Source: an uncultured Candidatus Saccharibacteria bacterium
Lineage (GTDB): Bacteria; Patescibacteriota; Minisyncoccia; UBA6257; 2-01-FULL-56-20
DNA length: 64,000 nt
Direction: 5' to 3'
Assembly: GCA_964505005.1 (NCBI GenBank)
Contig: CAZDFQ010000002.1
Span: forward strand, 92,310-156,309
The notes below the pieces were generated by a model. It did no database searches. It was not told the DNA's origin and worked only from the letters and a program-made list of their open reading frames with translations. The position numbers were made by a program, and so were the translations under genes. Positions 8,646 to 57,412 of the stretch are shown here, piece by piece (within the stretch, counting starts at the first letter, position 1; each line of letters begins with the position of its first letter).

Positions 8646-8686
8646 TTACATTTATGTTATAAATCGTTCGTATTAGATATTCAAAT

Positions 8687-9354: not shown

Positions 9355-9621
9355 CTAGAATTGGATTACATACAATCCTTTTTCTTCGATTTCTTTTTTC
9401 TGGCCGTAGTCGTCCAAATTGAATTTCATTACTAATTCAACTTTCTTTTCAAGCCGGCGACCAGTGTAATTTTTTATCTGCGGGTCCCATTCTTCAAGAA
9501 TCAGCATATCGCCTTCTTTGATGTCAAAGTCAGCCAGCCGCAGTTCAAATCTTTTTCGGCCGGAATTGACGGCTTCAAAATTGACCGGCCAGATTTTTTT
9601 CCTAACCCCTGTCATAATCAA
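9355..9621 (-). CDS. Hypothetical small protein (possible ASCH/PUA-like fold, DUF3850-like)
   Basis: 88 aa: MIMTGVRKKIWPVNFEAVNSGRKRFELRLADFDIKEGDMLILEEWD.... The family assignment is only by weak resemblance. Confidence 0.3.
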   Translation of the reverse strand: MIMTGVRKKIWPVNFEAVNSGRKRFELRLADFDIKEGDMLILEEWDPQIKNYTGRRLEKKVELVMKFNLDDYGQKKEIEEKGLYVIQF

Positions 9622-10397: not shown

Positions 10398-11093
10398 TCA
10401 TAACTCCTCGAGTTTTTTGGCTTGCCCGATGTCAATGTTGCCGATTCTCGTCCGCCGCAATTCTTGAAGCATTGCCGGAACGCCGAGTCGCCGGCCGATT
10501 TCTTCAGCCACCGCCCGAGCATAAGTTCCTTTTTCCGCTTTCATTTCGATTCGGAGAATAATTTGCTTCGGCCACTGGATTATTTTTAGAAGTTTTAGAT
10601 AGAAAATTTTCGTTTGGCGGAATCTCTGTTCAATTGGCAGTCCTCGGCGCGCGTATTTATAAAGGGGAACACCTTTGTGTTTTACAGCTGAATAGTGGGG
10701 GATAGGCAATTCGAGTTCACCCTCCATCTCTTTAAGAATTTTTTTGAGAAACTGAATATCCACTTTTTTTGCCTTTTTGTTATTCTCTAATTCGTTCGAA
10801 TTAGAGAAGATAACTTTCTCTTCTTCGATAATTTTCCCTTCCGGGTCGCCAGTATCAGTGCATCTGCCGAGAAGAACAGCCAGCCGATAGGTTTTCGGCA
10901 AACTGGCATATTCTTTCAGTTTTTTCGTCCCCTTGCCGACGCCGATTATCAGAAGGCCGGTGGCGAACGGGTCCAGGGTGCCGCTGTGCCCCATTTTTTT
11001 GATGCCTAATTTCTTTCTCAATTGCCGGATGACATCAAAAGAGCTTAGGCCTTTCGGTTTATCAATGAAAATTATTTCCGGCGGCTGTTCCAT
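10398..11093 (-). CDS. truB: tRNA pseudouridine(55) synthase TruB. It contains a 26-bp palindrome in-frame.
   Basis: IDKPKGLSSFDVIRQLRKKLGIKKMGHSGTLDPFATGLLIIGVGKGTKKL (TruB catalytic Asp motif) and PHYSAVKHKGVPLYKYARRG. Confidence 0.85.
   Translation of the reverse strand: MEQPPEIIFIDKPKGLSSFDVIRQLRKKLGIKKMGHSGTLDPFATGLLIIGVGKGTKKLKEYASLPKTYRLAVLLGRCTDTGDPEGKIIEEEKVIFSNSNELENNKKAKKVDIQFLKKILKEMEGELELPIPHYSAVKHKGVPLYKYARRGLPIEQRFRQTKIFYLKLLKIIQWPKQIILRIEMKAEKGTYARAVAEEIGRRLGVPAMLQELRRTRIGNIDIGQAKKLEEL
10783..10808. repeat. 26-bp near-perfect palindrome ttctctaattcg-tt-cgaattagagaa lying inside the truB reading frame
   Basis: The left half is the reverse complement of the right half, separated by a 2-nt centre. 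It encodes part of the SNSNELENNK segment of TruB. Confidence 0.6.
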
Positions 11094-11489
11094 TTATCTT
11101 ACTCTGGTTTTCTTATCCAAACGTTTAGCTTGATGCCCCGCCGGCGCGTTATTCTCGTTTTGGTGGGCAGGCAGGGCCGCCAAGTCCGCTGGCGTTCGTA
11201 AATCGTTTTTTCGGCAATAAAACGCCTCGGCGTCCGGAAAGCAGTTTTGCCCCTTTTGGTTCGTCTGGAAGAATAGTTTTTCATCGTTAAAGTAATTTTA
11301 TCAATTCTTCAGGTGACTACAAAATTTAGGGGTAAATTATTTTACCTTTCTTTATTTTTAGAAAAGGCGTCGGTTTATCGAATGGGCGTTGCCGCAGTAG
11401 CGGCAACGCCCTTCTTGCTTTTCAAGTTGTCTAAATCCGCTTTTTTTGTTACATTACGAAAACAGAGTTTTTACAATCCGCCAGCTGAA

Positions 11490-12833
11490 ATGGTTCTCAG
11501 TAAAAGAAAAAATTTAGACAAAAAAGCTCGTGTATTCGTGGCAATGTCCGGCGGCGTGGATTCGTCGGTCGCGGCTTGGCTGTTGCAAAAGCAGGGTTAT
11601 GATGTTATCGGCGTTTTTATGAAATGTGTCGGCCCCTCGACGGGGTTCGGGGTAGACTGTGCCGAGAGCGATGCCGAGGATGCCCGCCGGGTTGCTGAAA
11701 AATTAAGTATTCCTTTTTATGTTTGGGATTTTGAAGAGGAATACAAGCGCCGGGTGATGGATTATATGATTGACGGCTACCGGCAAGGGCTGACGCCGAA
11801 TCCGGATGTGATGTGTAACCGCGAAATTAAATTTGGGCTTTTTTTGGAGAGAGCGCTCGAAATGGGGGCGGATTATGTGGCAACAGGGCACTATGTGCGG
11901 AAACTTTGTTTTGCGAGAACCGGCGTCGCTCCGACTCCGGCGGTCGGAGCGCGCCTGCATCTCGGTTCTGCGGCTCGCTTACGGCGAGACCAAGCCCGCA
12001 GAACCTCCGATAGCTTCTCGCAAAACAAAGTTTCCTTTGGATTGGGTATTGCAAGGGATTTGAATAAGGACCAATCCTACTTCCTCTGGACTCTGAATCA
12101 GGAGCAGTTGAAGCCCTGCCTTTTTCCAATTGGCGATTATCTTAAATCCGAAGTTCGGGAAATCGCCCGTCAAGCCGGTTTGCCGACCGCCGACAAAAAG
12201 GATTCCCAGGGTATTTGTTTTTTGGGTAAGGTAACGCTTGATGAGTTTCTGAAGCAATATATTCCGGCGCGGCGCGGGGCGGTTTTAACGACTACCGGCC
12301 AGGAAATCGGCGAACATCAGGGTGCCCAGTTTTATACAATCGGACAAAGGCATATTTCGATCGCGAATCGCCAAGGGCAAATCGCCAATAGTCAGCCGCT
12401 CTATGTTGCCGAAAAAGATGTTGCAGCTAATATGCTGGTAGTCGCCGAAGGCGAGGACAATCCGATGCTCTATAAAGAGGAAGTTGAATTAAAGGATGTC
12501 AATTTTATCAGCCCAGAACATTCTAACATTCTGCAGAATGTTAGAATGTCAGTATCGGCTCGAGTTCGTTATCGCCAACCGTTGGTACCGGCAATCCTCT
12601 ATAAGCTAAAAGCTAAAAGCTATAAACTCGTTTTTGACCAGCCGGTCAAATTCGTGGCCCCGGGTCAGTCCGCGGTGTTTTACAAAAAGGGACAAGGGAC
12701 AAGGGACCCCGCACCAAAGCCCCGAAGGAGAACAAGTTCCCTACGGGGCAGGCAAGCTTGGTACGGGGCAGGCAAGAGAGAGGGAGAGTTCGAGCTGCTG
12801 GGCGGCGGAATAATAAAAACTGTTATGCTATAG
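11490..12833 (+). CDS. mnmA: tRNA-specific 2-thiouridylase MnmA, enlarged by two in-frame repeat insertions
   Basis: VFVAMSGGVDSSVAAWLL (PP-loop), ATGHYVR, NKDQSYFLW, KKDSQGICFLG and ELLGGGII. About 447 aa from the ATG at 11490, versus about 360 aa for the canonical protein. Upstream hairpin gggcgttgccgc-agta-gcggcaacgccc plus a U-run at 11384-11420. Confidence 0.85.
   Translation: MVLSKRKNLDKKARVFVAMSGGVDSSVAAWLLQKQGYDVIGVFMKCVGPSTGFGVDCAESDAEDARRVAEKLSIPFYVWDFEEEYKRRVMDYMIDGYRQGLTPNPDVMCNREIKFGLFLERALEMGADYVATGHYVRKLCFARTGVAPTPAVGARLHLGSAARLRRDQARRTSDSFSQNKVSFGLGIARDLNKDQSYFLWTLNQEQLKPCLFPIGDYLKSEVREIARQAGLPTADKKDSQGICFLGKVTLDEFLKQYIPARRGAVLTTTGQEIGEHQGAQFYTIGQRHISIANRQGQIANSQPLYVAEKDVAANMLVVAEGEDNPMLYKEEVELKDVNFISPEHSNILQNVRMSVSARVRYRQPLVPAILYKLKAKSYKLVFDQPVKFVAPGQSAVFYKKGQGTRDPAPKPRRRTSSLRGRQAWYGAGKREGEFELLGGGIIKTVML
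11899..12035. repeat. 137-bp palindromic element with perfect 21-bp terminal inverted repeats, inserted in-frame in mnmA
   Basis: Left IR ggaaactttgttttgcgagaa (11899-11919) is the exact reverse complement of the right IR ttctcgcaaaacaaagtttcc (12015-12035). The interior carries nested palindromes such as cgctccgac...gtcggagcg. It encodes a ~45-aa extra block between ATGHYVRK and GLGIARDLNKDQSYFL. Confidence 0.7.
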
Positions 12834-12912
12834 CATAACACCTGCACTTCTTGTTTATACGATTGCCATTTTTCACCAATGGTACAGATTCAGTAATCTT
12901 AGCTTTACAACT

Positions 12913-13482
12913 ATGATTTTATTATTTACTGGGAACGGTAAAGGTAAGACGACCGCTTCGCTTGGGCAGATGGTCCGTGTTCTTGGCCGCGGCAAAAACG
13001 CTTTGATGATTCAATTTATCAAAGGGCTGTGGAAATCAGGAGAAGACGAGTTCGCCAATATGTTTAATGAGACAAGAGACAAGAAACAAGGTAAAAAATC
13101 CGTGTCCCGTGTCCCGTGTCCCATGTTTCAGATTCGCAAAATGGGGCTCGGTTTTGTCGGCATTCTCGGTGATAAACTGCCGCGGAAAGAGCATCAGAAA
13201 GCCGCGGAAAAAGCCCTGGAGTATTTCAAAGACCAGGTAAGAACCGGCCAATGGTATTTAATTGTCCTGGATGAGATTAATGTGGCTGTTTCCTTGGGGC
13301 TGCTTACTGTCAAAGCGGTTAGGGAAGCCATCGAAGATTTTCCCAAAGACCGGCTTTTGATTTTAACCGGCCGCCAGGCCGCGCCGGAACTTATTGAAAT
13401 TGCTGACCTGGTTACGGAAATGAAGGAAATAAAACATCCGTTTAAAGAAGGCAAGCTGGCAGAATACGGCATAGAATTCTGA
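12913..13482 (+). CDS. Cob(I)alamin / corrinoid adenosyltransferase family protein (CobO/BtuR-like P-loop)
   Basis: FTGNGKGKTTASLG P-loop, IQFIKG, LIVLDEI and LILTGRQAAPELIEIADLVTEMKEIKH. It contains an inserted heptamer-repeat block at 13069-13122. Confidence 0.65.
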   Translation: MILLFTGNGKGKTTASLGQMVRVLGRGKNALMIQFIKGLWKSGEDEFANMFNETRDKKQGKKSVSRVPCPMFQIRKMGLGFVGILGDKLPRKEHQKAAEKALEYFKDQVRTGQWYLIVLDEINVAVSLGLLTVKAVREAIEDFPKDRLLILTGRQAAPELIEIADLVTEMKEIKHPFKEGKLAEYGIEF

Positions 13483-13575
13483 ACTTTACATTTGTTTGCC
13501 TCTCTTTTATAATTGCCAATCGAGGGAGAAGTAAAGAATCCCTGTTTTTGTTTCGAAAAGAAAATAATTTTTTCT

Positions 13576-14418
13576 ATGCCTGAAACAACCAATAATAAAA
13601 TTAGTAGTCCTGACAATAATGTTGCAGCCGTTGACTTGTATCCTGATGAACGGTTCAAAGAATTGATTGAGGCCGGCGTCTTTTACGGCCGGAAAAAGAC
13701 CAAGACCAATCCACGGATGAGGCCGTTTATTTTGGCAACCAGAAATAACATTGAAATCATCAATCTCCAGAAAACTTTGGAAGGCCTGGAAAAAGCCCTG
13801 GTTTTTTTGAAAGAAAAATTCAGAAACAAAGAGACAATTCTTTTGGTTGGCACCCAGCCCCAGGCGAGCGACGACACAGCCAAACTCGCCGAAGAATTTA
13901 ATTTGCCTTTAGTGAACACCAGATGGCCCGGTGGACTCCTGACCAATTTCAAAATAATTTCCAAGCGCGTCGATTATTATAAAAAGTTGAAGAGCGAACT
14001 TCAGAGCGGCGCCCTGGAAAAATACACCAAAAAAGAGCGACTGGGCTTTGAGCGGGAAATCCGGCGCTTGAAAGAACTTTTTGCCGGCTTGGAGAATCTC
14101 GTTTCTTTGCCCGGGGCAGTCGTTGTCATTGACTCCAATGTCCATTCAACCGCGATTCGCGAGGCCCGACGCCTGAAAATTCCTATAGTTGCTTATGTTA
14201 ATACTGACGTTGACCCGGAATCAGTTGATTATCCGGTTATTGGCAACACCAAGGCGCGGAAGAGCATCGATTGGTTTTTAAGCAAAGTGGCTGAAGCTCT
14301 TAAAGAAGCAGCAGTAGCGCCAGTTCCAGTAGTCGAAGCTGAAGCGTCGGTCGGGTCAGCCAGCGAAAGTGAAAAAAACCGGCTGACCAAAATATCTGAG
14401 CATCAAGTCAATGGCTGA
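13576..14418 (+). CDS. rpsB: 30S ribosomal protein S2
   Basis: LIEAGVFYGRKKTKTNPRMRPFI...LLVGTQPQA...WPGGLLTNF...AVVVIDSNVHSTAIREARRLKIPIVAYVNTDVDP. Start moved to the ATG at 13576. Confidence 0.9.
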   Translation: MPETTNNKISSPDNNVAAVDLYPDERFKELIEAGVFYGRKKTKTNPRMRPFILATRNNIEIINLQKTLEGLEKALVFLKEKFRNKETILLVGTQPQASDDTAKLAEEFNLPLVNTRWPGGLLTNFKIISKRVDYYKKLKSELQSGALEKYTKKERLGFEREIRRLKELFAGLENLVSLPGAVVVIDSNVHSTAIREARRLKIPIVAYVNTDVDPESVDYPVIGNTKARKSIDWFLSKVAEALKEAAVAPVPVVEAEASVGSASESEKNRLTKISEHQVNG

Positions 14419-14860
14419 CGACGTTCAAATCATAAAAAAATTAAGAGAGATTACTGGCGCCGGCGTAATGGAATGCAAGGAAGCGCTTCGTGAAGCAGCA
14501 GGTGATTTTGACAAGGCAATTAAAATTATTCATGAACGCGGCTTGGCCAAAGTGGAGAAGCGGGCTGGCCGAGAAGCCGGGGCTGGCCTTATTGAATCCT
14601 ACATTCATAATGAGAGAATCGGCGTGTTGGTGGATGTCCGGGCCGAGACGGATTTCGTAGTGCGGAGCGAACCATTCCGCCAATTAGCCCATGAAATTGC
14701 CATGCAGATTGCCGCCCTGGCGCCAGTCGATGTTGAAGAACTTTTGAAACAACCATATATTAAAGATGAGTCGAAAACAATCGGCGATTTGATAAAAGAA
14801 ACCATTGCCAAAGTCGGCGAGAATATAAAAATCAGGGCCTTTTCGCGAATGGAAATATAG
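14411..14860 (+). CDS. tsf: Elongation factor Ts (short ~150 aa form)
   Basis: IKKLREITGAGVMECKEALREAAGDFDKAIKII (UBA-like N-terminus) plus the dimerisation core. An rpsB-tsf operon is the conserved arrangement. Confidence 0.85.
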   Translation: MADDVQIIKKLREITGAGVMECKEALREAAGDFDKAIKIIHERGLAKVEKRAGREAGAGLIESYIHNERIGVLVDVRAETDFVVRSEPFRQLAHEIAMQIAALAPVDVEELLKQPYIKDESKTIGDLIKETIAKVGENIKIRAFSRMEI

Positions 14861-14865
14861 TAGAA

Positions 14866-15012
14866 AAATCAAATATCAAATATCAAAATGCAAAATGACA
14901 GATAAAAATTCAAAAATTATTTACTTTAACCAATTTTAAATTTTACCTTGTCATTTTTCCGCCAAAGGCGGATCAGCCTCGGGCTTGAGATTTTTGAATT
15001 TTGCATTTTTAA
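14866..15012. repeat. Composite element: AT-rich inverted arms (caaaatgcaaaatg...cattttgcattttt) around a GC hairpin ccgccaaaggcgg-atcagcctcgggct. A second copy lies inverted at 38497-38575.
   Basis: The reverse complement of 38505-38575 matches 14951-15010 nearly base for base. Confidence 0.55.
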
Positions 15013-15015
15013 TTT

Positions 15016-15396
15016 ATGATACAGTTCATTCTCACCACCGTTTTAATGGTTTCGCTCGGCACGATTCTTTATCTCGTGGCGCGTTCTTTGCCGCGGATTG
15101 AAGAAGAGCAGCCGGCTGACGGCACGCTTCTTGAACGTTGGGCCGCTTCCGAGATACCGGAAAAAGTTGACGCGGCCTTCAACGGTTTTTTGATGAAATT
15201 CCTCCGTAAGCTTAAAGTGGTTCTTTTGAAAATTGACAACTATTTGACCGACCATCTCAAAAAAATCTCCTCATCCGCCAATGGCGGAGGCAACGACAAG
15301 CCGAAAATTGATTTCAAAGACATCAACGGTTCTGAACCAAACGTTGCCGACATCCCTGTCGGAGTTGAAAAAACGCCGGAATCGGGCGATAATTGA
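15016..15396 (+). CDS. Hypothetical membrane-anchored protein
   Basis: N-terminal TM FILTTVLMVSLGTILYLVA; no recognisable domain. Confidence 0.35.
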   Translation: MIQFILTTVLMVSLGTILYLVARSLPRIEEEQPADGTLLERWAASEIPEKVDAAFNGFLMKFLRKLKVVLLKIDNYLTDHLKKISSSANGGGNDKPKIDFKDINGSEPNVADIPVGVEKTPESGDN

Positions 15397-15513
15397 TTTA
15401 GAAAACTCCTTATCTGCTGAATATTATTGATAGTTGTTGCCTTTTCGTGCAGCGCGCAGGTGGCAGCCAGCCCAAGGCTGGTCGGCCTCGGGCCGAAGCG
15501 GTCAATCTTTTTC

Positions 15514-15765
15514 ATGTATTTTGTTTACATCTTGAAAAGCAATAGGAGCGGTAAGCTTTACAAAGGCTCAACTTCAGATTTAAGACGTCGCCTCAAAGAG
15601 CATAATAACAGAGAAGAATATTCTACAAAAAGTGGCATCCCATGGAAATTGGTCTATTATGAATGTTTTTTGAATAAATCAGACGCGCTTCGAGAAGAGA
15701 AATTTCTTAAATCCGGGAAGGGTAGAGAACGAATTAAATTTTTGTTAAAATATACTTTGAAATAA
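15514..15765 (+). CDS. GIY-YIG nuclease-domain protein (YhbQ/UPF0213-like), ending 3 nt before tRNA-Tyr
   Basis: MYFVYILKSNRSGKLYKGSTSDLRRRLKEHNN (GIY...YIG motifs). Start placed at the ATG 15514 by homology. Confidence 0.7.
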   Translation: MYFVYILKSNRSGKLYKGSTSDLRRRLKEHNNREEYSTKSGIPWKLVYYECFLNKSDALREEKFLKSGKGRERIKFLLKYTLK

Positions 15766-15768
15766 TTT

Positions 15769-15856
15769 GCGCAGGTGGCAGAGCGGTCAATTGCACTTGA
15801 CTGTAAATCAAGCGCCCTTTCGGGCTACGGGGGTTCGAATCCCTCCCTGCGCACCA
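15769..15856 (+). tRNA. tRNA-Tyr (anticodon GTA), long variable arm, encoded CCA
   Basis: Acceptor gcgcagg/cctgcgc, anticodon stem cttga/tcaag with loop ctgtaaa, long variable arm cgccctttcgggctac, T-arm ggggg-ttcgaat-ccctc. Confidence 0.7.
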
Positions 15857-16050
15857 ATCAGGAAAAGTCAATGCCTCGCGGCGGCTGTGCCGCCGCTCGG
15901 CTACCAAATCGTACGGATTTTTTGGGCTCAAAACGGAACTGGCGGTTTTCGGTGGGAAAAGAAAATTTTTTCATAAGGATGTTAAAGTATGAGCTTAGCT
16001 TTGAAAGGTCGACCTTTTTATAAATTATTATAAAAAAATAAAAGATAATT

Positions 16051-16551
16051 ATGGGATTTGAAACTCCTAAGATGCCGTCGCCGGAAGAAATGGCGAAACT
16101 GGAAAAAAGTAGGACATTATCTGATGCGGAATTATTAAAAAATGAGTCAGGATTTCCTGGCGAGGAAACGGCAGAATACAAGTTCGATAAACAAGGCAAT
16201 AAACAACTTGAGGTTCCAGAGGAGGACATAGAAGTTGCGAGGAGAGAAATGAATTCAGAAATAGCCATAAAGAATGCTGATTCTTTTGAAGAGTTAGGGA
16301 CCGCGCTCCTTAAAGATAAAAAATTCACTAGCGAATTAATCGGCCCTTTAGATCAATATGGGATAGAGGGTGTGGTTCGCCAAATCGAACGTTTAAGAAC
16401 AATAAAAAGAAATGGCTCATCAGAATATTTCTATAAAGATTGGATACCAGAAGGTGGAGGCTTAAGAGCAAAAGTTTTTGAATTGATGGAGAGAGAGTTT
16501 GGTAAAGATTGGTTCACAGATATTTCCTGGGGAAAGAAAAAAGAGAAATAG
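16051..16551 (+). CDS. Hypothetical protein (166 aa) in the AT-rich island
   Basis: No recognisable motif; acidic N-terminus. The local GC is well below the window average. Confidence 0.4.
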   Translation: MGFETPKMPSPEEMAKLEKSRTLSDAELLKNESGFPGEETAEYKFDKQGNKQLEVPEEDIEVARREMNSEIAIKNADSFEELGTALLKDKKFTSELIGPLDQYGIEGVVRQIERLRTIKRNGSSEYFYKDWIPEGGGLRAKVFELMEREFGKDWFTDISWGKKKEK

Positions 16552-26642: not shown

Positions 26643-26757
26643 AATCTTAAATCCAAAGCTTAAATGTCAAATCAAATCCAAAATCCCAATGACAAAAAAT
26701 TTGGATTTTGGGCTTGAGGCTTGATTTGAAATTTGGATTTTGATATTCGGATTTTCA
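26643..26757. repeat. AT-rich nested-palindrome MITE-like element (aaatccaaa / tttggattt family), copy 1
   Basis: About 85% identical to 34322-34435. Internal dyads ccaaaatcccaa...tttggattttggg. Confidence 0.6.
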
Positions 26758-28180: not shown

Positions 28181-28297
28181 GAATCTCTAATTTCTAAATC
28201 CTAATTTCTAAACAATTTCAAATATCAAAATTCAAAATGGTTTGAGATTTGATATTTGGATTTGTTTAGGATTTAGAGATTAGGATTTAGGATTTTT
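28181..28297. repeat. AT-rich nested palindrome (taggattt/aaatccta family): outer arms aatctctaatttctaaatcctaatttctaaacaa / ttgtttaggatttagagattaggatttaggatt and an inner dyad caaatatcaaa/tttgatatttg
   Basis: Reverse complementarity of the arms seen directly. Related shorter copies at 32095-32160, 32525-32610 and 43715-43745. Confidence 0.55.
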
Positions 28298-31510: not shown

Positions 31511-32089
31511 ATGGCCGGGCTCTCTTTGACCGACAGATTCGGCGTGGTAATTTTGATTTTGGCGGAAGTCGCTCTTATCTTTCGGCGCCCGGTGCTCATC
31601 GGTTATCTTAAATCAGTTTGGTTGTTCAGCTTAATCGCTGTTTTCGGCTCTTCTTTTTACCTGGCTTGGCTCCAGTATCAGGCCTGGGCCAGCAGCGGCT
31701 CTTTCGGGAAATTTCTTCTGCCGCCCTATCAGAAGATTTATTTTTTTTATTATGTGGGCTGGCGGATTTTTACTCCTTGGTTAGTCGCTCTGGCCGCGGC
31801 TATTATCATCAGCCAGTTGGCTGGTTTTTTAAATAAACGATTTGGCGAAAAATTTTTAGAGCCGGAGGAAATTAAGCTATTAGCTCTTGGTATTTTTTTG
31901 ACCGGCTGGCCCGGTCTTCTCTTTTTTATTGCCGTCGCGTTATTCAGCGGTTTACTGTGGTCAGTCACTTATCATTTTCTGGGCAAAGGCCGGGCGCCGC
32001 TTTTTTATTTATGGCTGCCGGCGGCAATTTTTGCTATACTGATAGAAAGCATGTTGCCATCGGAGATATTAAATGTATTTATCCTTTAA
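31511..32089 (+). CDS. Polytopic membrane protein with a divergent prepilin-peptidase-like motif
   Basis: PEEIKLLALGIFLTGW aligns to the A24 peptidase GGDVKLLAALGAWLGW block, but with Glu where the catalytic Asp is expected. Only 192 aa and no N-terminal Cys cluster. Confidence 0.35.
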   Translation: MAGLSLTDRFGVVILILAEVALIFRRPVLIGYLKSVWLFSLIAVFGSSFYLAWLQYQAWASSGSFGKFLLPPYQKIYFFYYVGWRIFTPWLVALAAAIIISQLAGFLNKRFGEKFLEPEEIKLLALGIFLTGWPGLLFFIAVALFSGLLWSVTYHFLGKGRAPLFYLWLPAAIFAILIESMLPSEILNVFIL

Positions 32090-32160: not shown

Positions 32161-32523
32161 ATGGCCGAAATTCAAAATTCTAAACAATACGACTTAGAAA
32201 AACGGACCTTAGAATTTGCAAGAAATGTAAGATTGTTTATTAAAAAATTACCGCGGACGTTATCAAATACAAAAGACACAAAACAAGCCATCAGGTCATC
32301 CGGTTCCATCGGCGCAAATTATATTGAAGCCAACGAATCTTTAAGCAAAAAAGATTTCTCTATGAGAATTAAGATTTGTCGTAAAGAGGCAAAAGAGACA
32401 GAATACTGGTTGCAGCTTTTGGATACCGGAGGAGAAGTCGGATTAGAAAACGAAAAGGAGAATCTTATAAAAGAGGCTATTGAACTAAGAAAGATTTTCG
32501 GCTCTATCTTGAAAAAATCATAA
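32161..32523 (+). CDS. Four-helix-bundle protein (23S rRNA intervening-sequence protein family)
   Basis: LEFARNVRLFIKKLP...SIGANYIEANESLSKKDF...EYWLQLL matches TIGR02436. It is flanked by AT-rich inverted repeats. Confidence 0.75.
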   Translation: MAEIQNSKQYDLEKRTLEFARNVRLFIKKLPRTLSNTKDTKQAIRSSGSIGANYIEANESLSKKDFSMRIKICRKEAKETEYWLQLLDTGGEVGLENEKENLIKEAIELRKIFGSILKKS

Positions 32524-32608: not shown

Positions 32609-34321
32609 ATGCGCCTCCCCGTACCTATCCCCCAGCTTAAAGACAAATTGCTTCAGGAGAATCTTATTTCTCCAGAACGTTTCGACGCCCTGCTCGCCGA
32701 AGTTGAAAGGAAGAAAGAAAACATTCTCGATGTTTTGGTTTCAGAAAACATCGTTGAAAGAAATTACATAAATGAATTCGTCGCTTCCGCGCTGGGAGTT
32801 GAGCTGGCTAATTTGTCAGCAAAAAAAATTGATGAAAATGTCGTCAAGCTGTTGCCCGAAGACCTGGCCCGGCAACGCCGCGTTATTTTATTCGGCAAAG
32901 AGCCGGATGGCGCGCTTGAGGTGGCGATGGCTGAGCCGAGCGACCTTGAAACCATTGAATTTTTGGAAGAACGCCTGAAAGCAAAAGTTAAACCGTATTT
33001 AGCAACCCCAGAAGATTTAAACCGCAGCTTTTCGATTTACGGCTTGGAATTAACTCAAAATTTCAAAAAAATTATTGAAGAGAATATCCAGGAATCGCTC
33101 CGCAGCCGCACTAAGACCATTGAAGAAGCGGCGGCCCAGTTGCCGATTGTTGCTATCGTTGACAATCTTTTATCTTACGCTACTTCCTTGCGCGCTTCTG
33201 ACATTCATCTGGAAATTTTGGAAGAAGATACGCTCGTCAGATACCGCATTGATGGCATCCTTTATGAGATTTTAAGAATTCCCAAAGAAGTTCATCCGGC
33301 TTTGGTAGCGCGGATTAAAATTTTAAGCGGTCTTAAAATCGACGAACATTATAAACCTCAGGACGGTCGATTCCGTCACAGTGTTGCTAATCAGGTTGTC
33401 GATGTCCGGGTCTCGGTGATGCCGACTTTTTACGGCGAGAAAATAGAGATGCGGCTGCTGGAATCAACCGAGAGACCTTTGTCGCTTGAAGAATTGGGGA
33501 TGCTTGAGGAAGTTGAAAAAATTGTTTCGGAAAATTTGAAAAAGGCCTATGGGATGATTTTAGTTTGCGGGCCGACCGGTTCCGGAAAGACAACGACTCT
33601 TTACGCTATGATGAATATTTTGAATAAACCGACGGTGAACATCGTGACCATCGAAGACCCGATTGAGTACAACATCCGCTATGTCAATCAGACGCAGATT
33701 AATCCGGCGGCCGGCATTACTTTTGCTTCGGGGTTGCGCTCTATTTTACGACAAGACCCCAATATAATTATGGTCGGTGAAGTCAGGGACAGCGAGACGG
33801 CCGGCATAGCGGTGCAGTCGGCACTGACCGGGCACCTGATTCTTTCTTCGCTCCATACTAATGACGCGCCAACGGCCGTACCTCGGCTTTTTGACTTGGA
33901 GGTGCCGCCGTTTTTGGTGGCGGCCACTCTTAACTTAGTGGTGGCTCAGCGTTTGGTCAGAAAAATCTGCACTCAATGCATTTACTCATACAAGATAACG
34001 CCGGCCATCAAAGAGTCAGTCGAAGAACAGCTTGGAGTTTTAGGCATAAAAGGCGGAGAAACCATCCCCACCATTCTTTTTAAAGGTAAAGGATGTCCGG
34101 CTTGCAATTTTGCCGGCTATCGGGGCCGACTCGGCATCTTCGAAATTTTAGAGATTAATGAATCAATCAAAAAAACGATAATTGACCCGCGCTTTAGCTT
34201 AGAAACCGTCCGCCAGGCCGTCAGAGAAAACAGCTTCAAAACGATGTTCGAAGACGGTTTATTGAAGGTTCAACTGGGATTGACTACAATTGAAGAAGTA
34301 CTGAGAGTGATAAGAGAATAA
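32609..34321 (+). CDS. pilB: Type IV pilus assembly ATPase PilB (GspE family)
   Basis: N-terminal T2SSE_N domain. LVCGPTGSGKTTTLYAMM Walker A; Asp/His boxes; C-terminal tetracysteine CPACNFAGYRGRLG. Confidence 0.9.
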   Translation: MRLPVPIPQLKDKLLQENLISPERFDALLAEVERKKENILDVLVSENIVERNYINEFVASALGVELANLSAKKIDENVVKLLPEDLARQRRVILFGKEPDGALEVAMAEPSDLETIEFLEERLKAKVKPYLATPEDLNRSFSIYGLELTQNFKKIIEENIQESLRSRTKTIEEAAAQLPIVAIVDNLLSYATSLRASDIHLEILEEDTLVRYRIDGILYEILRIPKEVHPALVARIKILSGLKIDEHYKPQDGRFRHSVANQVVDVRVSVMPTFYGEKIEMRLLESTERPLSLEELGMLEEVEKIVSENLKKAYGMILVCGPTGSGKTTTLYAMMNILNKPTVNIVTIEDPIEYNIRYVNQTQINPAAGITFASGLRSILRQDPNIIMVGEVRDSETAGIAVQSALTGHLILSSLHTNDAPTAVPRLFDLEVPPFLVAATLNLVVAQRLVRKICTQCIYSYKITPAIKESVEEQLGVLGIKGGETIPTILFKGKGCPACNFAGYRGRLGIFEILEINESIKKTIIDPRFSLETVRQAVRENSFKTMFEDGLLKVQLGLTTIEEVLRVIRE

Positions 34322-34435
34322 AAATCCAAATGTCAAAATCCAAATTCCAAATCAAATCCAAAATCCCAATGGCAAAAATTTGGATTTTGAACTTCGAGCT
34401 TGATTTGACATTTGAGTTTTAGATTTAGGATTTTA
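34322..34435. repeat. AT-rich nested-palindrome MITE-like element, copy 2
   Basis: See 26643-26757. Confidence 0.6.
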
Positions 34436-34443
34436 ATATATTC

Positions 34444-35649
34444 ATGCTTTATCGCTACACCGCTTCGGATAAAACAGGCAAAATCGTCGAAGATGAATTG
34501 GAAGCCGATGATTTAAACCAGGCGCTTCACTACCTGGCCTCCAGAGAGCTTCGGCCGATTTCCGTCAAGCCGTTGCGCACTGAACGCGCCGGCTTATTAG
34601 GAGCGTTCCGCGGCATCACCACCGCTGATAAAATTTTCCTGACGAAATATTTAGCTTTGATGCTTAAAGTCGGAACCGACCTTCTTTCCGCCATTAATAT
34701 TTTAATCGCCGATTTCGACAAACCCGCAATGAGGAATTTTCTTCTTGAAATTCGGGAGAATCTCAGCCGGGGGAGACCGTTCTATCAGGCCTTTGCCGAA
34801 CATCCCAAAGATTTTTCCGTTGTTTTTATAAATCTTATCAAAGCTTCTGAAGTTTCCGGCAATCTCCAGCAGACCTTTGAAAGCTTGAGTGTTTCTTTGC
34901 AGCGGGAAGCCGAGCTCAGGTCGAACATCCGTTCGGCCTTCGTCTATCCGATTATTCTTTCGATTATGGCCATTGTCATCATCGCTTTTCTAGTTACTTT
35001 CGCTCTGCCGAGAATTGCCACCGCTTTTTCTCAAACCGGAATAAGACCGCCATTTTTTTCAAGAATCGTTTTTGGCGTCGGTCTTTTCATTGGTCAGAAT
35101 ATTTATCTTCTGACAATTATTTTTTTGGCAATTGTCATTCCGGCTGTTTATTTCTTTTGGCAAAATCCAGTAGGCCGAAAAATCATGAGTCAATTATTGA
35201 TGCGCTTACCGGTTATCAGAGGGATTTACCGGGACCTGGCCATTCAAAGATTCGCTTCAACTTTCAGCGCCTTGATGGAAGCCGGTCTGCCGATAATTCA
35301 GGCGACTACTGTTACGGCCGAAGTCGTTGGTCATGAAGATTTCCGATTCAGCTTGATGAGAATCGCCGACGAAGGACTGACCAAGGGACTGACCATTGGA
35401 GAGGCGTTCCGGCGCGAAGAAGTCTTTCCTAAAGTTGTTACCAACCTCGTTGCTATTTCGGAGAAGGCGGGTCACCTTGGAGAAGTCCTGAAGACCTTGG
35501 CTGATTTTTATCAATCGAATGTCGAAGCCGGCATCCGCACGCTGGTTTCTTTTCTTGAACCGGCCCTGCTCCTCATTATGGGACTATTGGTGGCCACCAT
35601 TGCTTTGGCTATTATCGTGCCAATTTATCAGTTAACCGCCCAATTCTAA
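34444..35649 (+). CDS. pilC: Type IV pilus platform protein PilC (GspF family)
   Basis: Two T2SSF repeats: LSRGRPFYQAFAEHPKDFSVVFINLIKASEVSGNL and the second GxxL repeat. Confidence 0.9.
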   Translation: MLYRYTASDKTGKIVEDELEADDLNQALHYLASRELRPISVKPLRTERAGLLGAFRGITTADKIFLTKYLALMLKVGTDLLSAINILIADFDKPAMRNFLLEIRENLSRGRPFYQAFAEHPKDFSVVFINLIKASEVSGNLQQTFESLSVSLQREAELRSNIRSAFVYPIILSIMAIVIIAFLVTFALPRIATAFSQTGIRPPFFSRIVFGVGLFIGQNIYLLTIIFLAIVIPAVYFFWQNPVGRKIMSQLLMRLPVIRGIYRDLAIQRFASTFSALMEAGLPIIQATTVTAEVVGHEDFRFSLMRIADEGLTKGLTIGEAFRREEVFPKVVTNLVAISEKAGHLGEVLKTLADFYQSNVEAGIRTLVSFLEPALLLIMGLLVATIALAIIVPIYQLTAQF

Positions 35650-35698: not shown

Positions 35699-36166
35699 AT
35701 GTTTAATAAAGGCACAACTTTAGTCGAGCTTATCATCGTCGTTGCCTTAATCAGCATTCTCGCGGTTTTCTCTTTTTTTACTCTTCTGCAGAGAAAAGGT
35801 CAGAATGATTTTGATAATGCGGGCCAGAGTATGGCGGCAATGCTTCGCGAAGCGAGAAGCCGCTCGGTCAGCCAAAGCTCGAGCACCAGCTGGGGCGTCC
35901 ATTTCGAAAATAGTACAACCACAACTCCTTTCTACGCTCTTTTCCCCGGAAGCTATGCGACCGCCACTATCATCGGTTATTATCGTCTGCCGACAACCGT
36001 CGGCTATGTTACTTCAAGCCTTGCTTCAGGCGCCTCTAAAGAAATAACTTTTTCTCAGATAACCGGCTTGGCCTCTCAATCAACCTCGATTGCCATTTAC
36101 AGCTTAAGCAATTCGGCAAATTCTTCGACTATCAATGTGGCTTCTTCAGGCGCCGTCAGCTACTAA
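35699..36166 (+). CDS. Pilin-like protein with prepilin N-terminal cleavage/methylation domain
   Basis: MFNKG|TTLVELIIVVALISILAVF, with E at +5. Confidence 0.7.
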   Translation: MFNKGTTLVELIIVVALISILAVFSFFTLLQRKGQNDFDNAGQSMAAMLREARSRSVSQSSSTSWGVHFENSTTTTPFYALFPGSYATATIIGYYRLPTTVGYVTSSLASGASKEITFSQITGLASQSTSIAIYSLSNSANSSTINVASSGAVSY

Positions 36167-36336
36167 CCGAAGAATCTAGAATCTAGAATTTAGAAAATAT
36201 GAAACTTCGTTTCATCAATTGGTTCGCTCGGCGAAAATAAATGTATAATTCATTTACTTTCTCCTCGCTGCCAATTGTAGAATCTAGAATTTGAAAATTG
36301 GTAAAATATGTAAGACGGTAGCAGTGGCGATAAAAA

Positions 36337-36984
<648 letters not shown>

Positions 36985-37118
36985 ATGATTCGTATTTAAA
37001 GACCACATAATCCGAATATACGAATGCACCCGAATAACCCGAATTATAATCGCTTTATTCGGAACATTCGGATATATTCGGGTATTCGGATTATGCGATA
37101 CATCCTAATTTAACATAA

Positions 37119-37994
37119 ATGCCTAAAACTTTCTCAAAAAATTTTTTCGGCCTACTTGTTTTCTTAGCGCTCATTTTTTTAAACATTTTTATTCTTTCAA
37201 ACATTGCCGAATCAGCCACTAACATCAGCGCCTCAACTACTGCTCACTGGGCCTGGAATGATATTATCGGCTGGATAGATTTTTACAATACGAATACGAT
37301 AACCGTCAGCTCCTACAATTTGACTGGCTATGCCAGTTCTTCGGCCGGCGACATTTCTCTTGACTGCCATACGACGAGAAACGGGAACATTTGTTCTCAA
37401 AGCAATTATCAGGTGACGAACGACGGCAGCGGTAATCTTTCCGGTTTCGGCTGGAACGACCAGTACGGCTGGGTAAGTTTTGACTGCAATAATAACGGCG
37501 GCTGTGGCCAGTCCAATTATCGGGTTTATATTGATGGCAGCGGCAATTTCTGGAATTACGCCTGGAATGACACCATCGGCTGGATAAGCTTCAATTGCGC
37601 CGACCCCGGCGTTTGCGGAACATCCAATTACAAAGTAGTAACGAGCTGGGCGGCTACTTCGGCCATCGGTTATCTTGATTCCAGTACCTACGACACCGGC
37701 TCGGCAAGCGGCGCCCAGTTGAATTCTGTTTTGTGGCATGGCAATCTGCCATCTGGCACGGCCGTGCGCTTCCAGTTTGCGGTAAGTAATTCCTCGAGCG
37801 GGCCCTGGACTTTTGTCGGCACGGATGGCACGAGCAATACTTATTACAACACCGGCCCAGATGCCTCGCTGAAGCTCGATTATACTTTTTTCAACAATTT
37901 CCGTTATTTCCGCTACCGGGGGTATCTGGTCTCGGATTTGGCGCAGCGCTTGACCCCCCGCGTGGACGAAGTGCTTGTGAACTGGAGCCCTTAG
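37119..37994 (+). CDS. Secreted protein with three internal ~45-aa Cys-containing repeats (W-N-D-x-x-G-W-[IV]-[DS]-F-x-C...C-[GS]-x-S-N-Y); candidate pilus-associated adhesin
   Basis: Signal peptide MPKTFSKNFFGLLVFLALIFLNIFILSNIAES. Repeats AWNDIIGWIDF...C...ICSQSNYQV, GWNDQYGWVSFDCNNNGGCGQSNYRV and AWNDTIGWISFNCADPGVCGTSNYKV. Confidence 0.5.
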   Translation: MPKTFSKNFFGLLVFLALIFLNIFILSNIAESATNISASTTAHWAWNDIIGWIDFYNTNTITVSSYNLTGYASSSAGDISLDCHTTRNGNICSQSNYQVTNDGSGNLSGFGWNDQYGWVSFDCNNNGGCGQSNYRVYIDGSGNFWNYAWNDTIGWISFNCADPGVCGTSNYKVVTSWAATSAIGYLDSSTYDTGSASGAQLNSVLWHGNLPSGTAVRFQFAVSNSSSGPWTFVGTDGTSNTYYNTGPDASLKLDYTFFNNFRYFRYRGYLVSDLAQRLTPRVDEVLVNWSP

Positions 37995-38057
37995 TTTAGA
38001 ATCTAGAATTTAGAAAGTAGAATTTAGGAGCAATTTTGTTATTATTTAGGATAGGGT

Positions 38058-38495
38058 ATGAATATTCTACTTTCTACTTTCTATTTTCTACCTTCTCGTA
38101 AGGGGCAGACCGCTCTTTCCCTGGTTTTCCTGATAGGCATAGTTATAGTTTCTATAGGAGCGACAATCGCATTTTTATCCTCGAGTTTTTTGAGTTCGGG
38201 CTACGGATTTCAGGCGGCCAACCGGGCCTTAGCCATTGCGACCGCCGGAGTCGAGGACGGCTTGGTAAAATTAATTCGGAACAAAGATTTTTCAGCCGGA
38301 ACGCCTTATTCCGTTCCCGTTGACAATGATTCAGCGACCGTTACAGTCACTCAGAACTCTCCCGTTGCCGGCCAAGCAACCATTATTTCTTCCGGGACAG
38401 CCCTCTTCCGTCAGAGAAAAATTCAGGTTATTGTGGCGATAAACAGCACCACCAGCGAAGTCAGCGTTATTTCCTGGCAGCTTCTGACCCTATAA
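38058..38495 (+). CDS. Pseudopilin-like protein; its 5' end carries the same heptamer repeat as 36337
   Basis: MNILLSTFYFLPSRKG|QTALSLVFLIGIVIVSIGATIAF. Confidence 0.45.
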   Translation: MNILLSTFYFLPSRKGQTALSLVFLIGIVIVSIGATIAFLSSSFLSSGYGFQAANRALAIATAGVEDGLVKLIRNKDFSAGTPYSVPVDNDSATVTVTQNSPVAGQATIISSGTALFRQRKIQVIVAINSTTSEVSVISWQLLTL

Positions 38496-38586: not shown

Positions 38587-40185
38587 ATGGACATGAATGA
38601 TTTAGCCAACAATCTCGACTCCATAAAAAGTGAGCGGGCCGCGACAACTGGAAAAAGCGCGGCAGTTCTTCCGTTCCTGTTGGACAAATTTTTGTCGTTT
38701 TTGCGGGCGAAAGCCAGGGTTGCTGGTCTAGAAATTTCCGACACGGCCTTACGCTTTGTTTATTTTAAGGATGGTCTGCCGGAAGCAATTAGCTTGCGTC
38801 TGCCGCCAGGAATCATTGAAAACGGAGAAATAAAAAATCCAGGAGATTTTGTTGATGCCTTGAAGGAGCTGCGCCAGCGAATTCCAAGTGAATTCGTTGG
38901 CGGCCCATTATCGTCCAGAAAAAATCCCGTTAACGTCGTTGTGACTTTGAGCTCAGTTCGTATCTACATTCAAGTTTTTAGCCTGCCTTTAGTAAAAGAA
39001 GAAAATTTGGAAGAAGCGATTCAGCTTAACATTCGGATGATTTCTCCGGTGGACCTTTCTCAAGCTTATGCTGGCTGGCAACTTGTAAATCAGAATCAGA
39101 ATGAGCTTCGGATAGAAATTTTGACGGCTTTTGCCAGCAAGTCGTTCATCGACCAGTTAAGCGCCTTTTTGAAAGAGGGAGGATTTTCTCCATTAGCTAT
39201 AGAATCCGGCGCTCTATCTTTGACTCGCTTGGTTCGCGAGAAAGGCGCGGGCTTTGAGAGAAACAAATTCTATCTTATTTTGAATATCGATAACCAAGGT
39301 CTTCAATTTTTGATTATAAAGCGAGGCCAGCTTAATTTTGAATATTTTACCTCTTGGGAAGACATTCGAGGTGAAGCCAAGGAAATTTCTTGGCGCGATT
39401 TCGAAGCCGCTATTAAAAAAAATCTTCACCAAGTGCTCAATTTTTACAGCAGTCATTGGTCTGAGCCGCTTACCGACATCTTCTTTGTCACCCCAAGTTT
39501 TGTCGAAGAAATAGAAAAAATCATCAGAGAAAATTTTTCTTTGAATGTCAACCAATTAAAATTGAGATTTGGAGAACCAGTCCCGAAAGAGTGGTTTGGA
39601 GCAATCGGTGCCGCCCTTCGCGGTGAGCTATCCCGTTTTCAAGACCACGACATAAATCTTTTGGGGATACCAGTTCAGGAAGAATTCCGCCGGCAGGAAA
39701 TAATCTATTTCTTGCGATTCTGGGAACTTTTGATACCCGCGTCTCTCGGTTTGCTTCTGGTGGCCTTCAGTTTGGCTTACTATTTTACCGCTAATCTTAG
39801 TCGTTCTCTTGAATCGCAAGCGGCTTTTCTGACTGTTGGCGAGCAAGTTAAAGAAATCAATTCTCTTCAATCTCAGATTAATGATTTTAATCAATCCGTT
39901 TCCTTAATTGCTTCTTTACAGAATTCCTTGAAGCCAAAAATGACTATTTTAAATAAGATTGATTCTTTGGTGGTTGCCAAAGGATTGATTCTCGACCGCC
40001 TGTATCTTCAGCCCGGCGGCTTGCCGGCGGTCCTGAGCGGTGAAGCGCCGTCGCAGGACCAGATTCTTGACTTCAAAAATTCTTTAGCAGCGGATCAGGC
40101 ATTTCAAAATATCAACCTGCCGCTCGCTGATATTCAGCCAAGAGGGGACGGATTTTCGTTCACCATAAACTTCACTTTGAAATAG
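38587..40185 (+). CDS. pilM: Type IV pilus assembly protein PilM (actin-like) fused to a PilN/PilO-like TM plus coiled-coil C-terminal region
   Basis: N-terminal actin-like fold (ALRFVYFKDG...NVVVTLSSVRIYIQVFSLP...). A TM segment follows (LIPASLGLLLVAFSLAYYF), then a coiled coil (LESQAAFLTVGEQVKEINSLQSQINDFN) and a periplasmic domain. Confidence 0.7.
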   Translation: MDMNDLANNLDSIKSERAATTGKSAAVLPFLLDKFLSFLRAKARVAGLEISDTALRFVYFKDGLPEAISLRLPPGIIENGEIKNPGDFVDALKELRQRIPSEFVGGPLSSRKNPVNVVVTLSSVRIYIQVFSLPLVKEENLEEAIQLNIRMISPVDLSQAYAGWQLVNQNQNELRIEILTAFASKSFIDQLSAFLKEGGFSPLAIESGALSLTRLVREKGAGFERNKFYLILNIDNQGLQFLIIKRGQLNFEYFTSWEDIRGEAKEISWRDFEAAIKKNLHQVLNFYSSHWSEPLTDIFFVTPSFVEEIEKIIRENFSLNVNQLKLRFGEPVPKEWFGAIGAALRGELSRFQDHDINLLGIPVQEEFRRQEIIYFLRFWELLIPASLGLLLVAFSLAYYFTANLSRSLESQAAFLTVGEQVKEINSLQSQINDFNQSVSLIASLQNSLKPKMTILNKIDSLVVAKGLILDRLYLQPGGLPAVLSGEAPSQDQILDFKNSLAADQAFQNINLPLADIQPRGDGFSFTINFTLK

Positions 40186-40277: not shown

Positions 40278-40970
40278 TTAGGATTGTTTGGGTTGCTTAT
40301 AAAATTTCTTCCCAATCTCTTCAAACGCCTGAGCAAGAGTCTTTTTATCCCGACTGTTGATTTTTTTAAGCACAAATTCGCCCGCTTTCATTCTGAAAGC
40401 CGCTGATTCACGCAGATTTTTACGCTGATTTATGCTGATATTATCCGCGTTTATCTGCGTTTCTAATCCGCGTTTATCGGCGTTCCGGCGGATACCTATC
40501 CGCAGTCGCCAGAAATTTTTCGTTTTAAGTTTCCGAATGACCGATTCTACTCCTTGATGTCCTGCCGAGCTCCGGCCGAAGGAAATCTTATATTTGCCTA
40601 ATTCGATATCTGAGTCGTCATGAACTATTAAAACTTCTTGCGGCTGGAGGTGATATTTTTTTAAAGTTTTGTCAACAAAATTTCCCGATTCATTCATATG
40701 GGTTCCGGCTTTTAGCAGTTTAAATTTATGAAATTTCGTTTCCTCAATTAGTTCGCCCCGCCCGCCTGAGTTGCTCAGGCAAGTCGGGCGGGTCGTCGAA
40801 AACAAACTGGTGTTTGCTTTCTTCTCGCTGCCGATTGGAAAATTTAAGAGAGGATTTTTACTTAGATAATCGACAGCCAAAAACCCAACATTATGGTAGG
40901 TGCCTTCGTACCTTTTTCCAGGATTGCCCAGGCCAATGATGATTTTAATTTTAGAAAGCTCCTTAAACAT
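40278..40970 (-). CDS. pth: Peptidyl-tRNA hydrolase, carrying an in-frame repeat-element insertion
   Basis: IIIGLGNPGKRYEGTYHNVGFLAVDYL...KFKLLKAGTHMNESGNFV...LIVHDDSDIELGKYKISFGRSSAGHQGVESVI. 230 aa versus about 190 aa for the canonical protein. Confidence 0.8.
   Translation of the reverse strand: MFKELSKIKIIIGLGNPGKRYEGTYHNVGFLAVDYLSKNPLLNFPIGSEKKANTSLFSTTRPTCLSNSGGRGELIEETKFHKFKLLKAGTHMNESGNFVDKTLKKYHLQPQEVLIVHDDSDIELGKYKISFGRSSAGHQGVESVIRKLKTKNFWRLRIGIRRNADKRGLETQINADNISINQRKNLRESAAFRMKAGEFVLKKINSRDKKTLAQAFEEIGKKFYKQPKQS
40745..40840. repeat. Copy of the cccgcccgcctgagttgctcaggcaagtcgggcggg-core element, inserted in-frame in pth
   Basis: About 85% identical over ~95 bp to the intergenic copy at 50613-50730, including the ...tttgctttcttctcgctgccgattgg right arm. 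Confidence 0.7.
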
Positions 40971-56945: not shown

Positions 56946-57034
56946 TAAAAAATCAAAAATCCCCGCCTGCGCCGACCCGCACTTCGCCGTTGACTTCAGC
57001 AGGGAGAGGGCTTCGGCGGGCAGGAAAAATCAAA

Positions 57035-57412
57035 ATGCAAAATTACAATTCAAAATTTAAAATTTTAATATTTTTAATTGTCATTTTAATCTTTGCATTT
57101 TTATTTTTGATTTGGCAGCGAGGTAGCGGCACGGCACCGCAGAATTTACTCGACTCTCTTGCTAAATGTCTGGCCTCGAAGGGTATAACAATGTACGGCG
57201 CCTATTGGTGCCCGCATTGCCAGAACGAGAAAGCAGCTTTCGGCAGTTCGTTCAGATATATTCCCTATGTGGAGTGCGCGGAAAATCCGCAAAAATGTCT
57301 GGAGGTCGGCATCAAGGGTTATCCAACCTGGATTTTCTCGGATGGCCGGCGCTTTGAAGGCGAGCAAGGGCTTCAGCGGCTGGCGCAGGAAAGCGGCTGC
57401 CCATTGCCGTAA
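57035..57412 (+). CDS. Membrane-anchored thioredoxin-fold protein (WCPHC active site)
   Basis: TM ILIFLIVILIFAFLFLIW, then MYGAYWCPHCQNEKAAFG (CxxC). Confidence 0.7.
   Translation: MQNYNSKFKILIFLIVILIFAFLFLIWQRGSGTAPQNLLDSLAKCLASKGITMYGAYWCPHCQNEKAAFGSSFRYIPYVECAENPQKCLEVGIKGYPTWIFSDGRRFEGEQGLQRLAQESGCPLP

Follow-up and report, generated by a model that had tools for sequence, protein, structure and literature searches.

The secreted protein analysed here is probably a Sec-exported, non-pilin component of the type IV pilus (T4P) of Patescibacteria which works with the PilV-like minor pilin encoded upstream of it. On the sequence evidence, that it acts together with this pilin is likely, because the two genes are linked and repeatedly fused. 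The protein family and the repeat-built barrel predicted for it are undescribed in the libraries searched, and the literature on type IV pili and minor pilins in Patescibacteria/CPR that was searched contained no description of the family. An accessory module on a minor pilin is, as such, an already known kind of thing.

Architecture of the secreted protein

The gene is present as a single copy in the window, by which we mean the whole 64-kb stretch of DNA analysed (Table 1). A minus-strand reading frame of 168 codons (37233-37739) was dismissed as spurious since thousands of homologues are found in the plus frame. A preliminary description of this DNA had proposed a secreted protein with a signal peptide. 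The reading frame is present, and an alignment of 46 homologues points to a Sec-type N-terminus. The first ~30 residues are hydrophobic and unconserved, end in A/V-x-A/G/S and are directly followed by a near-invariant TNI(S). This variable N-terminus ending in AxA, together with the near-invariant TNI(S), indicates a Sec/signal peptidase I signal and not a prepilin leader. The protein matches neither N_methyl (PF07963) nor TIGR02532 in Pfam and NCBIfam, and no lipobox was found, the alignment having no cysteine at the cleavage site. In view of the variable, Sec-type N-terminus, we likewise rejected a degenerate PilW/GspJ pilin. The mature protein has ~259 residues (28 kDa, pI 4.5, net charge -8), of which 16% are W, Y or F.

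The sequence following the signal peptide is repetitive. WND..GW motifs begin at residues 46, 112 and 149, SNY[QRK]V motifs at 95, 132 and 169, and the six cysteines fall into the pairs 83/92, 123/129 and 160/166. Among 200,000 composition-preserving shuffles of the mature sequence, only 77 produced even one WND..GW, so three copies lie far beyond chance. The period, taken from the spacing of the SNY motifs (95-132-169), is 37 residues, and four tandem units of about this length cover residues ~43-177 only. An HMM trained exclusively on units 3 and 4 (residues 106-140 and 143-177, from the 46 homologues) detected units 1 and 2, which were outside its training set. The model strands of unit 1 are residues 43-47 and 51-54. 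Unit 2 has lost its tryptophans and retained its cysteine pair, C83 and C92 being invariant in the 46-homologue alignment. The motifs of the three ~45-residue repeats originally proposed are thereby upheld, whereas their number and length are revised to four units of 37 residues. The former first repeat was a composite in which the WND-GW of unit 1 had been joined to the cysteine pair and SNY of unit 2. Two cysteines per repeat were also proposed; this applies to units 2-4 and not to unit 1, which is without a Cys loop. Cysteine pairs occur at the matching alignment columns in 248/270, 170/270 and 237/270 family sequences, and disulfides within the pairs are plausible from the sequence.

In the structure model, residues 179-291 form a separate, non-repetitive beta-sandwich. 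We read the protein as two domains because natural variants duplicate, insert or separate them. The barrel block is duplicated, or inserted in a loop of the sandwich, in P0121, P0077, P0081, P0180 and P0201. P0267 carries tandem copies of the sandwich without the barrel.

Table 1. Features of the pilus operon in the window (positions in nucleotides of the window; aa, residues of the secreted protein)
Feature	Position	Strand	Basis
PilB ATPase (32609-34321) and PilC platform protein (34444-35649)	32609..35649	+	T2SSE/T2SSF Pfam domains of orthologues, tblastn synteny
GspH/FimU-like minor prepilin	35699..36166	+	TIGR02532 above cut-off; GspH matches weak
PilV-like minor prepilin, putative partner; C-terminal tail QTDWSGGPGQ...FATSSQIDYSTTTGSIYIKLQ	36337..36984	+	
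Hexamer-repeat hairpin in the 134-nt gap before the ATG of the secreted-protein gene	37006..37095	+	RNA fold -39.2 kcal/mol, z -5.25 versus shuffles; inverted repeat I3
Secreted barrel-plus-sandwich protein (predicted fold), 291 aa + stop	37119..37994	+	Open reading frame, motifs, homologues
Sec-type signal peptide, aa 1-32, predicted cleavage AES|ATNIS	37119..37214	+	
Hairpin unit 1, aa 43-66, HWAWNDIIGWIDF, without Cys loop	37245..37316	+	HMM of units 3 and 4, E 1.2e-9
Hairpin unit 2, aa 68-102, degenerate GYASSSAGDISLDC-x8-C-SQSNYQV	37320..37424	+	HMM of units 3 and 4, E 4.6e-7
Hairpin unit 3, aa 106-140, NLSGFGWNDQYGWVSFDC-x5-C-GQSNYRV	37434..37538	+	HMM, alignments
Hairpin unit 4, aa 143-177, NFWNYAWNDTIGWISFNC-x5-C-GTSNYKVVTSW	37545..37649	+	HMM, alignments
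C-terminal jelly-roll beta-sandwich (predicted), aa 179-291, motifs FQFA.SN...GPW and RYFRYR...PRVD.V.VNWSP	37653..37991	+	
Putative PilX/GspK-like minor prepilin	38058..38495	+	Pattern only: RKG|QTALS and hydrophobic stretch
PilM-PilN(-O)-like fusion protein	38587..40185	+	TIGR01175 pilM weak; orthologues carry PilM_2 or PilN
TAGAATCTAGAATTTAGAAA-type and complement repeat sites	36171-36197, 36279-36297, 36347-36379, 37997-38027, 38064-38096		

Predicted fold and database searches

The four hairpins are predicted to close into an eight-stranded beta-barrel with three Cys-Cys loops, followed by the jelly-roll sandwich. A prediction of the barrel alone reached a pLDDT of only 67 and gave fold matches consistent with those obtained for the full-length model. 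Foldseek returned nothing from the PDB at E<=1e-3, and a sequence-profile search of the PDB gave no match at E<=10. Neither the protein nor the 46 homologues matched any Pfam or NCBIfam family. The initial view that the repeat contains no known domain thus agrees with these searches (Pfam, NCBIfam and PDB profiles), and the match to a characterised, pilus-unrelated family that could have spoken against a pilus-associated module was looked for and not found.

In the models, the likeness to Slam-type barrels and to discoidin/CBM32 sandwiches appears at the level of the fold only. The eight-stranded barrels of hemophilin, HpuA, TbpB, fHbp and the OmpA/OprF type have 4-15% sequence identity to the protein and, unlike it, none is built of four sequence repeats with Cys-stapled loops. 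Their biology also differs: they are lipoproteins that depend on Slam, or else proteins of the diderm outer membrane. Profiles of galactose-binding-domain-like, discoidin and CBM32 families (PF00754, PF22633 and similar) did not match the protein.

Distribution of the family

A word-indexed search returned at least 1000 homologues, all unnamed or ‘hypothetical’; the named sources among the matches listed are Liptonbacteria, Parcubacteria, Paceibacterota and Patescibacteria. An exhaustive profile search over 1.84 billion cluster representatives yielded 6763 matches at E<=1e-3, of which 2949 reached E<=1e-10 and 359 reached E<=1e-30. Relatives were found in 267 genomes in a scan of one genome per GTDB species, which placed the family in Paceibacteria-type lineages (Liptonbacteria, Wolfebacteria, Jorgensenbacteria). 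All 80 GTDB loci listed come from Patescibacteria or from unclassified-bacterium MAGs, and no relative was found in the IMG/VR viral contigs searched.

The pilus operon

In the window, the major pilin gene (starting at 30892) is followed by a 192-codon membrane ORF, an ORF for a 23S-IVS protein, and the genes for PilB and PilC. The GspH/FimU-like, PilV-like, secreted-protein and PilX-like genes and the PilM-N(-O) fusion come next, and then Pth, signal peptidase I and HisRS. The genes from PilB to PilMNO are all on the plus strand, and Pth (40278..40970) is on the minus strand. The gene of interest had been described as lying between two pseudopilin genes. Upstream this is supported: the PilV-like ORF matches PF07963 with 22.2 bits (cut-off 21.2) and, falling short of the cut-off of that model, pilV TIGR02523 (E 6.9e-10). 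Downstream, the ORF at 38058-38495 has the pattern of a prepilin and occupies a position conserved in 47/66 loci; as a pilin it is unconfirmed, with no HMM or PDB match.

Two small ORFs of the operon deserve mention. The 192-residue product of 31511-32089, a polytopic membrane protein encoded directly after the major pilin, has no Pfam match and is kept at its position in a subset of the related loci; a short prepilin-peptidase-like protein, or some other membrane protein of the pilus, is a possibility. The ORF at 32161-32523, which separates pilB from the pilin genes, encodes 120 residues that match the 23S rRNA-intervening-sequence protein family (PF05635, E 1.3e-14), and similar small ORFs adjoin the homologue of the secreted protein in L067, L068 and L062.

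Repeated DNA elements are also found around the minor-pilin genes. The hairpin in front of the secreted-protein gene is imperfect, consists of CCGAAT/ATTCGG hexamers and ends 23 nt before the ATG. TAGAATCTAGAATTTAGAAA repeats occur upstream of both the PilV-like and the PilX-like genes. The complementary sequence, TTCTACTTTCTACTTTCTA, falls within both ORFs at their 5′ ends, where it encodes LLSTFYFL(L/P)SR, a leader common to the two prepilins and situated just before the G|Q cleavage site. At the PilX-like gene, the arms 37998-38027 and 38067-38096 (I6/I7) would enclose the start codon at 38058; at the PilV-like gene, the repeat scan found the shared motifs only and no pairing that encloses the start codon. 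A similar leader, LFSIFYFLFSRKWGQ, is present in the PilX-like protein of L039, and LLSTFYFL recurs in the signal peptide of the homologue P0103. We rejected the view that these leaders are an artefact of the DNA repeats, since the L039 leader suggests real coding. Elsewhere in the window (26649-26740, 28187-28290 and 57025-57108), further long hairpins with arms of 42-50 nt and short AT-rich tandem repeats resemble those of the pilus cluster, and the repeat hairpins may be a genome-wide family.

Conservation of the locus

Relatives at 44-78% identity show the same gene order. Among the GTDB loci with sufficient flanking sequence, the secreted-protein gene directly follows a PilV-like gene in 51/61, PilC is present upstream in 35/45 and PilMNO downstream in 48/66. 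The distance between the PilV-like stop codon and the next start has a median of 15 nt and is 134 nt in the window. The pair stays unbroken where genes for large secreted proteins lie between the GspH-like and PilV-like genes (L008, L021, L033, L039), where genes of 1100-1470 codons are inserted elsewhere in the operon, and where extra genes follow the pair (L042, L056, L059). In L049 the two genes are adjacent with no PilB or PilC in the ~6 kb of upstream sequence examined, and in L056 an 878-residue multidomain version fills the slot of the secreted protein within a complete pilus operon, again beside the PilV-like gene.

The proteins encoded by the additional genes are probably further variable pilus-associated or surface proteins. 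Those between the GspH-like and PilV-like genes have 800-1500 residues (L008, L021, L033, L039 and L015, at about 5200-9400), and those after the pair (L042, L056, L059, at about 10900-16300) comprise an extra prepilin of 266-268 residues and large secreted proteins.

A second genomic context was found in 7 of the 43 loci with both flanks. Here, cysS-dnaB-recR adjoins the homologue, and the nearest 10 kb contain no T4P gene. These loci are mostly of Jorgensenbacteria type and encode, before cysS-dnaB-recR, a stand-alone homologue of ~310 residues with 44-53% identity. In one of them (L084, 6544-7856), a thioredoxin-like CPHC protein and a polytopic membrane protein are neighbours, possibly disulfide-forming machinery near a cysteine-containing homologue.

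Fusions to PilV-like pilins

About 40 of the 149 cluster representatives among the matches listed combine a prepilin N-terminus (G|QSLIE) with a C-terminal module that corresponds to the mature secreted protein. Inspection of P0122, P0138, P0139, P0143 and P0147 revealed a common layout: a PilV-like pilin, an optional LamG or other domain, a tail (…QTDWSGGPG…FATSTGIDY.TTGSI…), a short Gly-rich linker, and ATNIS with the full module. Residues 12-210 of the PilV-like protein of the window align with residues 7-207 of P0139 (40% identity, E 9e-36), and the module profile matches residues 222-486 of the same fusion. The PilV-like protein of the window ends in precisely this tail (…QTDWSGGPGQNSSVTSTNNMFATSSQIDYSTTTGSIYIKLQ), and the mature secreted protein starts with ATNIS. 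The two genes thus correspond to the halves of what is elsewhere one polypeptide, cut at the linker. The tail motif, QTDWSGGPGQ.GP..T.N..FSTS..I.Y..TTGSI.I, is found in 53/64 PilV-like orthologues (36850-36984 in the window). It also opens P0267, a non-pilin surface protein of 1076 residues, which suggests that the tail is an independent mini-module.

Four of the 80 GTDB loci listed (L034, L054, L065, L082) encode a fusion at the same operon position, flanked by GspH-like (undetected in L054) and PilX-like genes. Taken together, the fusions tie the module to the pilus more firmly than neighbourhood alone and are the strongest evidence for the link. The earlier proposal of a pilus-tip adhesin or pilus-associated binding module is therefore strongly supported as regards pilus association (51/61 loci and PilV-like::module fusions), whereas a tip adhesin is what we infer from it.

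The fusions also bear on a reading without any pilus link, in which the protein is a generic secreted surface or adhesion protein and its place in the operon reflects conserved gene order with neither functional nor physical meaning. Its own Sec signal and the homologues that adjoin housekeeping genes agree with this, and gene order is weak evidence in small genomes that are syntenic across a region including Pth, signal peptidase I and HisRS. The in-frame PilV-like fusions, however, are repeated, sequence-diverse and found at the same operon position, and the pair persists in rearranged or reduced operons (L049, L056). We consider this reading very improbable.

Other relatives are not pilins. 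They carry a Sec signal and variable N-terminal domains (DUF2341+fn3, F5/8C, NHL, TIG, LamG x3) before the module, so that a pilin partner is not obligatory. The 878-residue version of L056 belongs to this group. Throughout, the module is C-terminal and conserved and the N-terminal additions vary. A module of this kind could be an envelope anchor: much as GW, SLH and choline-binding modules act in Gram-positives, the conserved barrel-plus-sandwich would bind the wall or S-layer of the cell that produces it and would hold the variable N-terminal domains, or the pilus base, at the cell surface. The fixed C-terminal position of the module beside changing partners (LamG, DUF2341, fn3, TIG, F5/8C, NHL), the Trp-rich hairpins of the repeats and the stand-alone copies outside T4P loci (7/43) all agree with an anchor. 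Against it, extraction into a moving filament, as would happen to the ~40/149 listed representatives fused to a prepilin, fits a static anchor poorly, and the very tight adjacency is to the PilV-like gene specifically. Wall-binding repeats (choline-binding CW_binding_1, GW, SLH, LysM, ChW) were not matched by the protein or the 46 homologues in Pfam and NCBIfam. An anchor is unlikely in our view.

Proposed role at the pilus

A pilus component working with the PilV-like pilin remains our preferred reading. Beyond genomic linkage and fusion, its localisation, interaction and ligand binding are inferred. The simplest model places the module on the pilus, because pilins move out of the membrane into the filament, and the tip is thought to accommodate bulky modules at a pilin's C-terminus (PMC8179133). 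In fused forms, the module would ride on the pilus covalently. In split forms, the secreted module would dock non-covalently on the PilV-like pilin, probably via the conserved QTDWSGG...TTGSI tail, would be lifted out with the minor-pilin priming complex and would end at the pilus tip. There, it may itself bind a conserved ligand, most likely a glycan or protein on the host cell surface, or it may be a conserved carrier for added lectin-like domains that vary.

We favour a glycan or protein ligand over DNA, considering the lectin-like jelly roll of the model, the aromatic-rich, acidic composition and the precedent of the lectin-like PilX proteins of Saccharibacteria. A role as DNA receptor was rejected because of the pI and net charge of the mature protein. 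It is equally possible that the module serves for docking or as a carrier and is not the adhesive part, since constant C-terminal position and conservation combined with variable N-terminal domains is the pattern of a carrier, like the C-terminal domain of PilY1. Conservation speaks against a host-specific adhesin in particular: the median identity of the module is 58.6%, compared with 45-54% for the pilins and 62-65% for PilC and PilB, which would be unusual for such an adhesin, in a comparison biased by the choice of loci by similarity to the module.

Alternatively, the protein could serve assembly. Its part would be that of PilY1 in Myxococcus, namely to complete the minor-pilin complex and prime the pilus, ligand binding being secondary or absent, and it could stand in for a missing PilW/GspJ-type subunit. 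It occupies the PilW slot of the FimU-PilV-PilW-PilX order and no PilW/GspJ-like gene was recognised; its conservation is near that of PilB and PilC in the same biased sample. For priming, PilY1 is a precedent (cited in PMC8179133 and PMC11623550). Lacking a pilin fold and an N-terminal pilin helix, the protein cannot fill the position of a filament subunit, however, and the fusions put the module distal to the globular domain of the pilin, as for an accessory. A priming factor in this strict sense seems improbable; the idea overlaps with our preferred reading of a PilV-associated pilus component and does not exclude it.

Comparison with known pilus-associated proteins

The protein appears analogous, and not homologous, to PilY1 and to the modules of modular pilins. 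Like PilY1/PilC, it is a non-pilin with a Sec signal encoded inside a minor-pilin gene cluster, and its relatives join a conserved C-terminal part to variable N-terminal ‘effector’ domains, the carrier/effector logic of PilY1 (PMC8179133). In contrast to PilY1/PilC, the beta-propeller PF05567/IPR008707 is absent from it and an eight-stranded barrel plus jelly roll is predicted instead. It is also much smaller (259 residues when mature), and its family occurs fused to pilin as well. We know of no PilY1-pilin fusion.

Modular type IV pilins are exemplified by Streptococcus sanguinis PilB with its vWA module and PilC with its lectin module (PMC8179133, PMC9934059). Similarly, in about one quarter of the listed cluster representatives, a short Gly-rich linker attaches the present module to the C-terminal end of a minor pilin, often in the company of a concanavalin-like LamG domain. 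In the window, by contrast, the module has a gene and a Sec signal to itself, an arrangement that could be called a ‘split modular pilin’. The class III signal peptide G|(F/M/Q)xxxE and alpha1-N helix that define modular pilins are absent from the secreted protein and present in the PilV-like half of its fused relatives. Since the module has no InterPro/Pfam signature, the published survey of modular pilins would have missed it.

Two further systems invite comparison. In ETEC, CofB combines a pilin with a beta-repeat and a beta-sandwich, and CofJ is its secreted partner. According to the summary in PMC8179133, an operon-encoded, Sec-secreted protein associates there with the tip pilin; for the present protein such an association would be the counterpart. 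The lectin-like T4P accessory proteins PilX1 and PilX2 of Saccharibacteria (TM7x) have no predicted PilD signal, and their C-terminal domain is a beta-jelly-roll or a beta-propeller; binding to the host is efficient only with PilX2, and host-wall glycans have been implicated (PMC11623550). Compared by description only, they differ from the present protein in being described with pilin-like lollipop architectures. They also come from Saccharibacteria, whereas the present family was found in Paceibacteria-type lineages.

A bolder reading, which we offer as a tentative possibility, is that the family is the Paceibacteria-type counterpart of PilY1. It would then be a new class of T4P tip protein, a pseudo-fourfold beta-barrel of four Cys-stapled hairpin repeats plus jelly roll in the model, docked on the PilV-like tail and acting as a universal carrier and recognition head for host attachment.

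Biological significance

Few surface machines are conserved across Patescibacteria, and type IV pili are one of them. Attachment to the host is their presumed function and has been demonstrated experimentally in Saccharibacteria (PMC11623550). The literature consulted includes no study on a member of the Paceibacteria-type lineages (Liptonbacteria, Wolfebacteria, Jorgensenbacteria). The family described here is a widespread, well-conserved and wholly unannotated extracellular part of their pilus operon, of a type invisible to domain-database surveys of modular pilins. Its fused and split forms point to its partner, the PilV-like pilin, and a small protein of 28 kDa is suited to expression, structure solution and use as bait for the host ligand. 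If the family is indeed the counterpart of PilY1, it would be the recognition head by which uncultivated episymbionts attach to their hosts.
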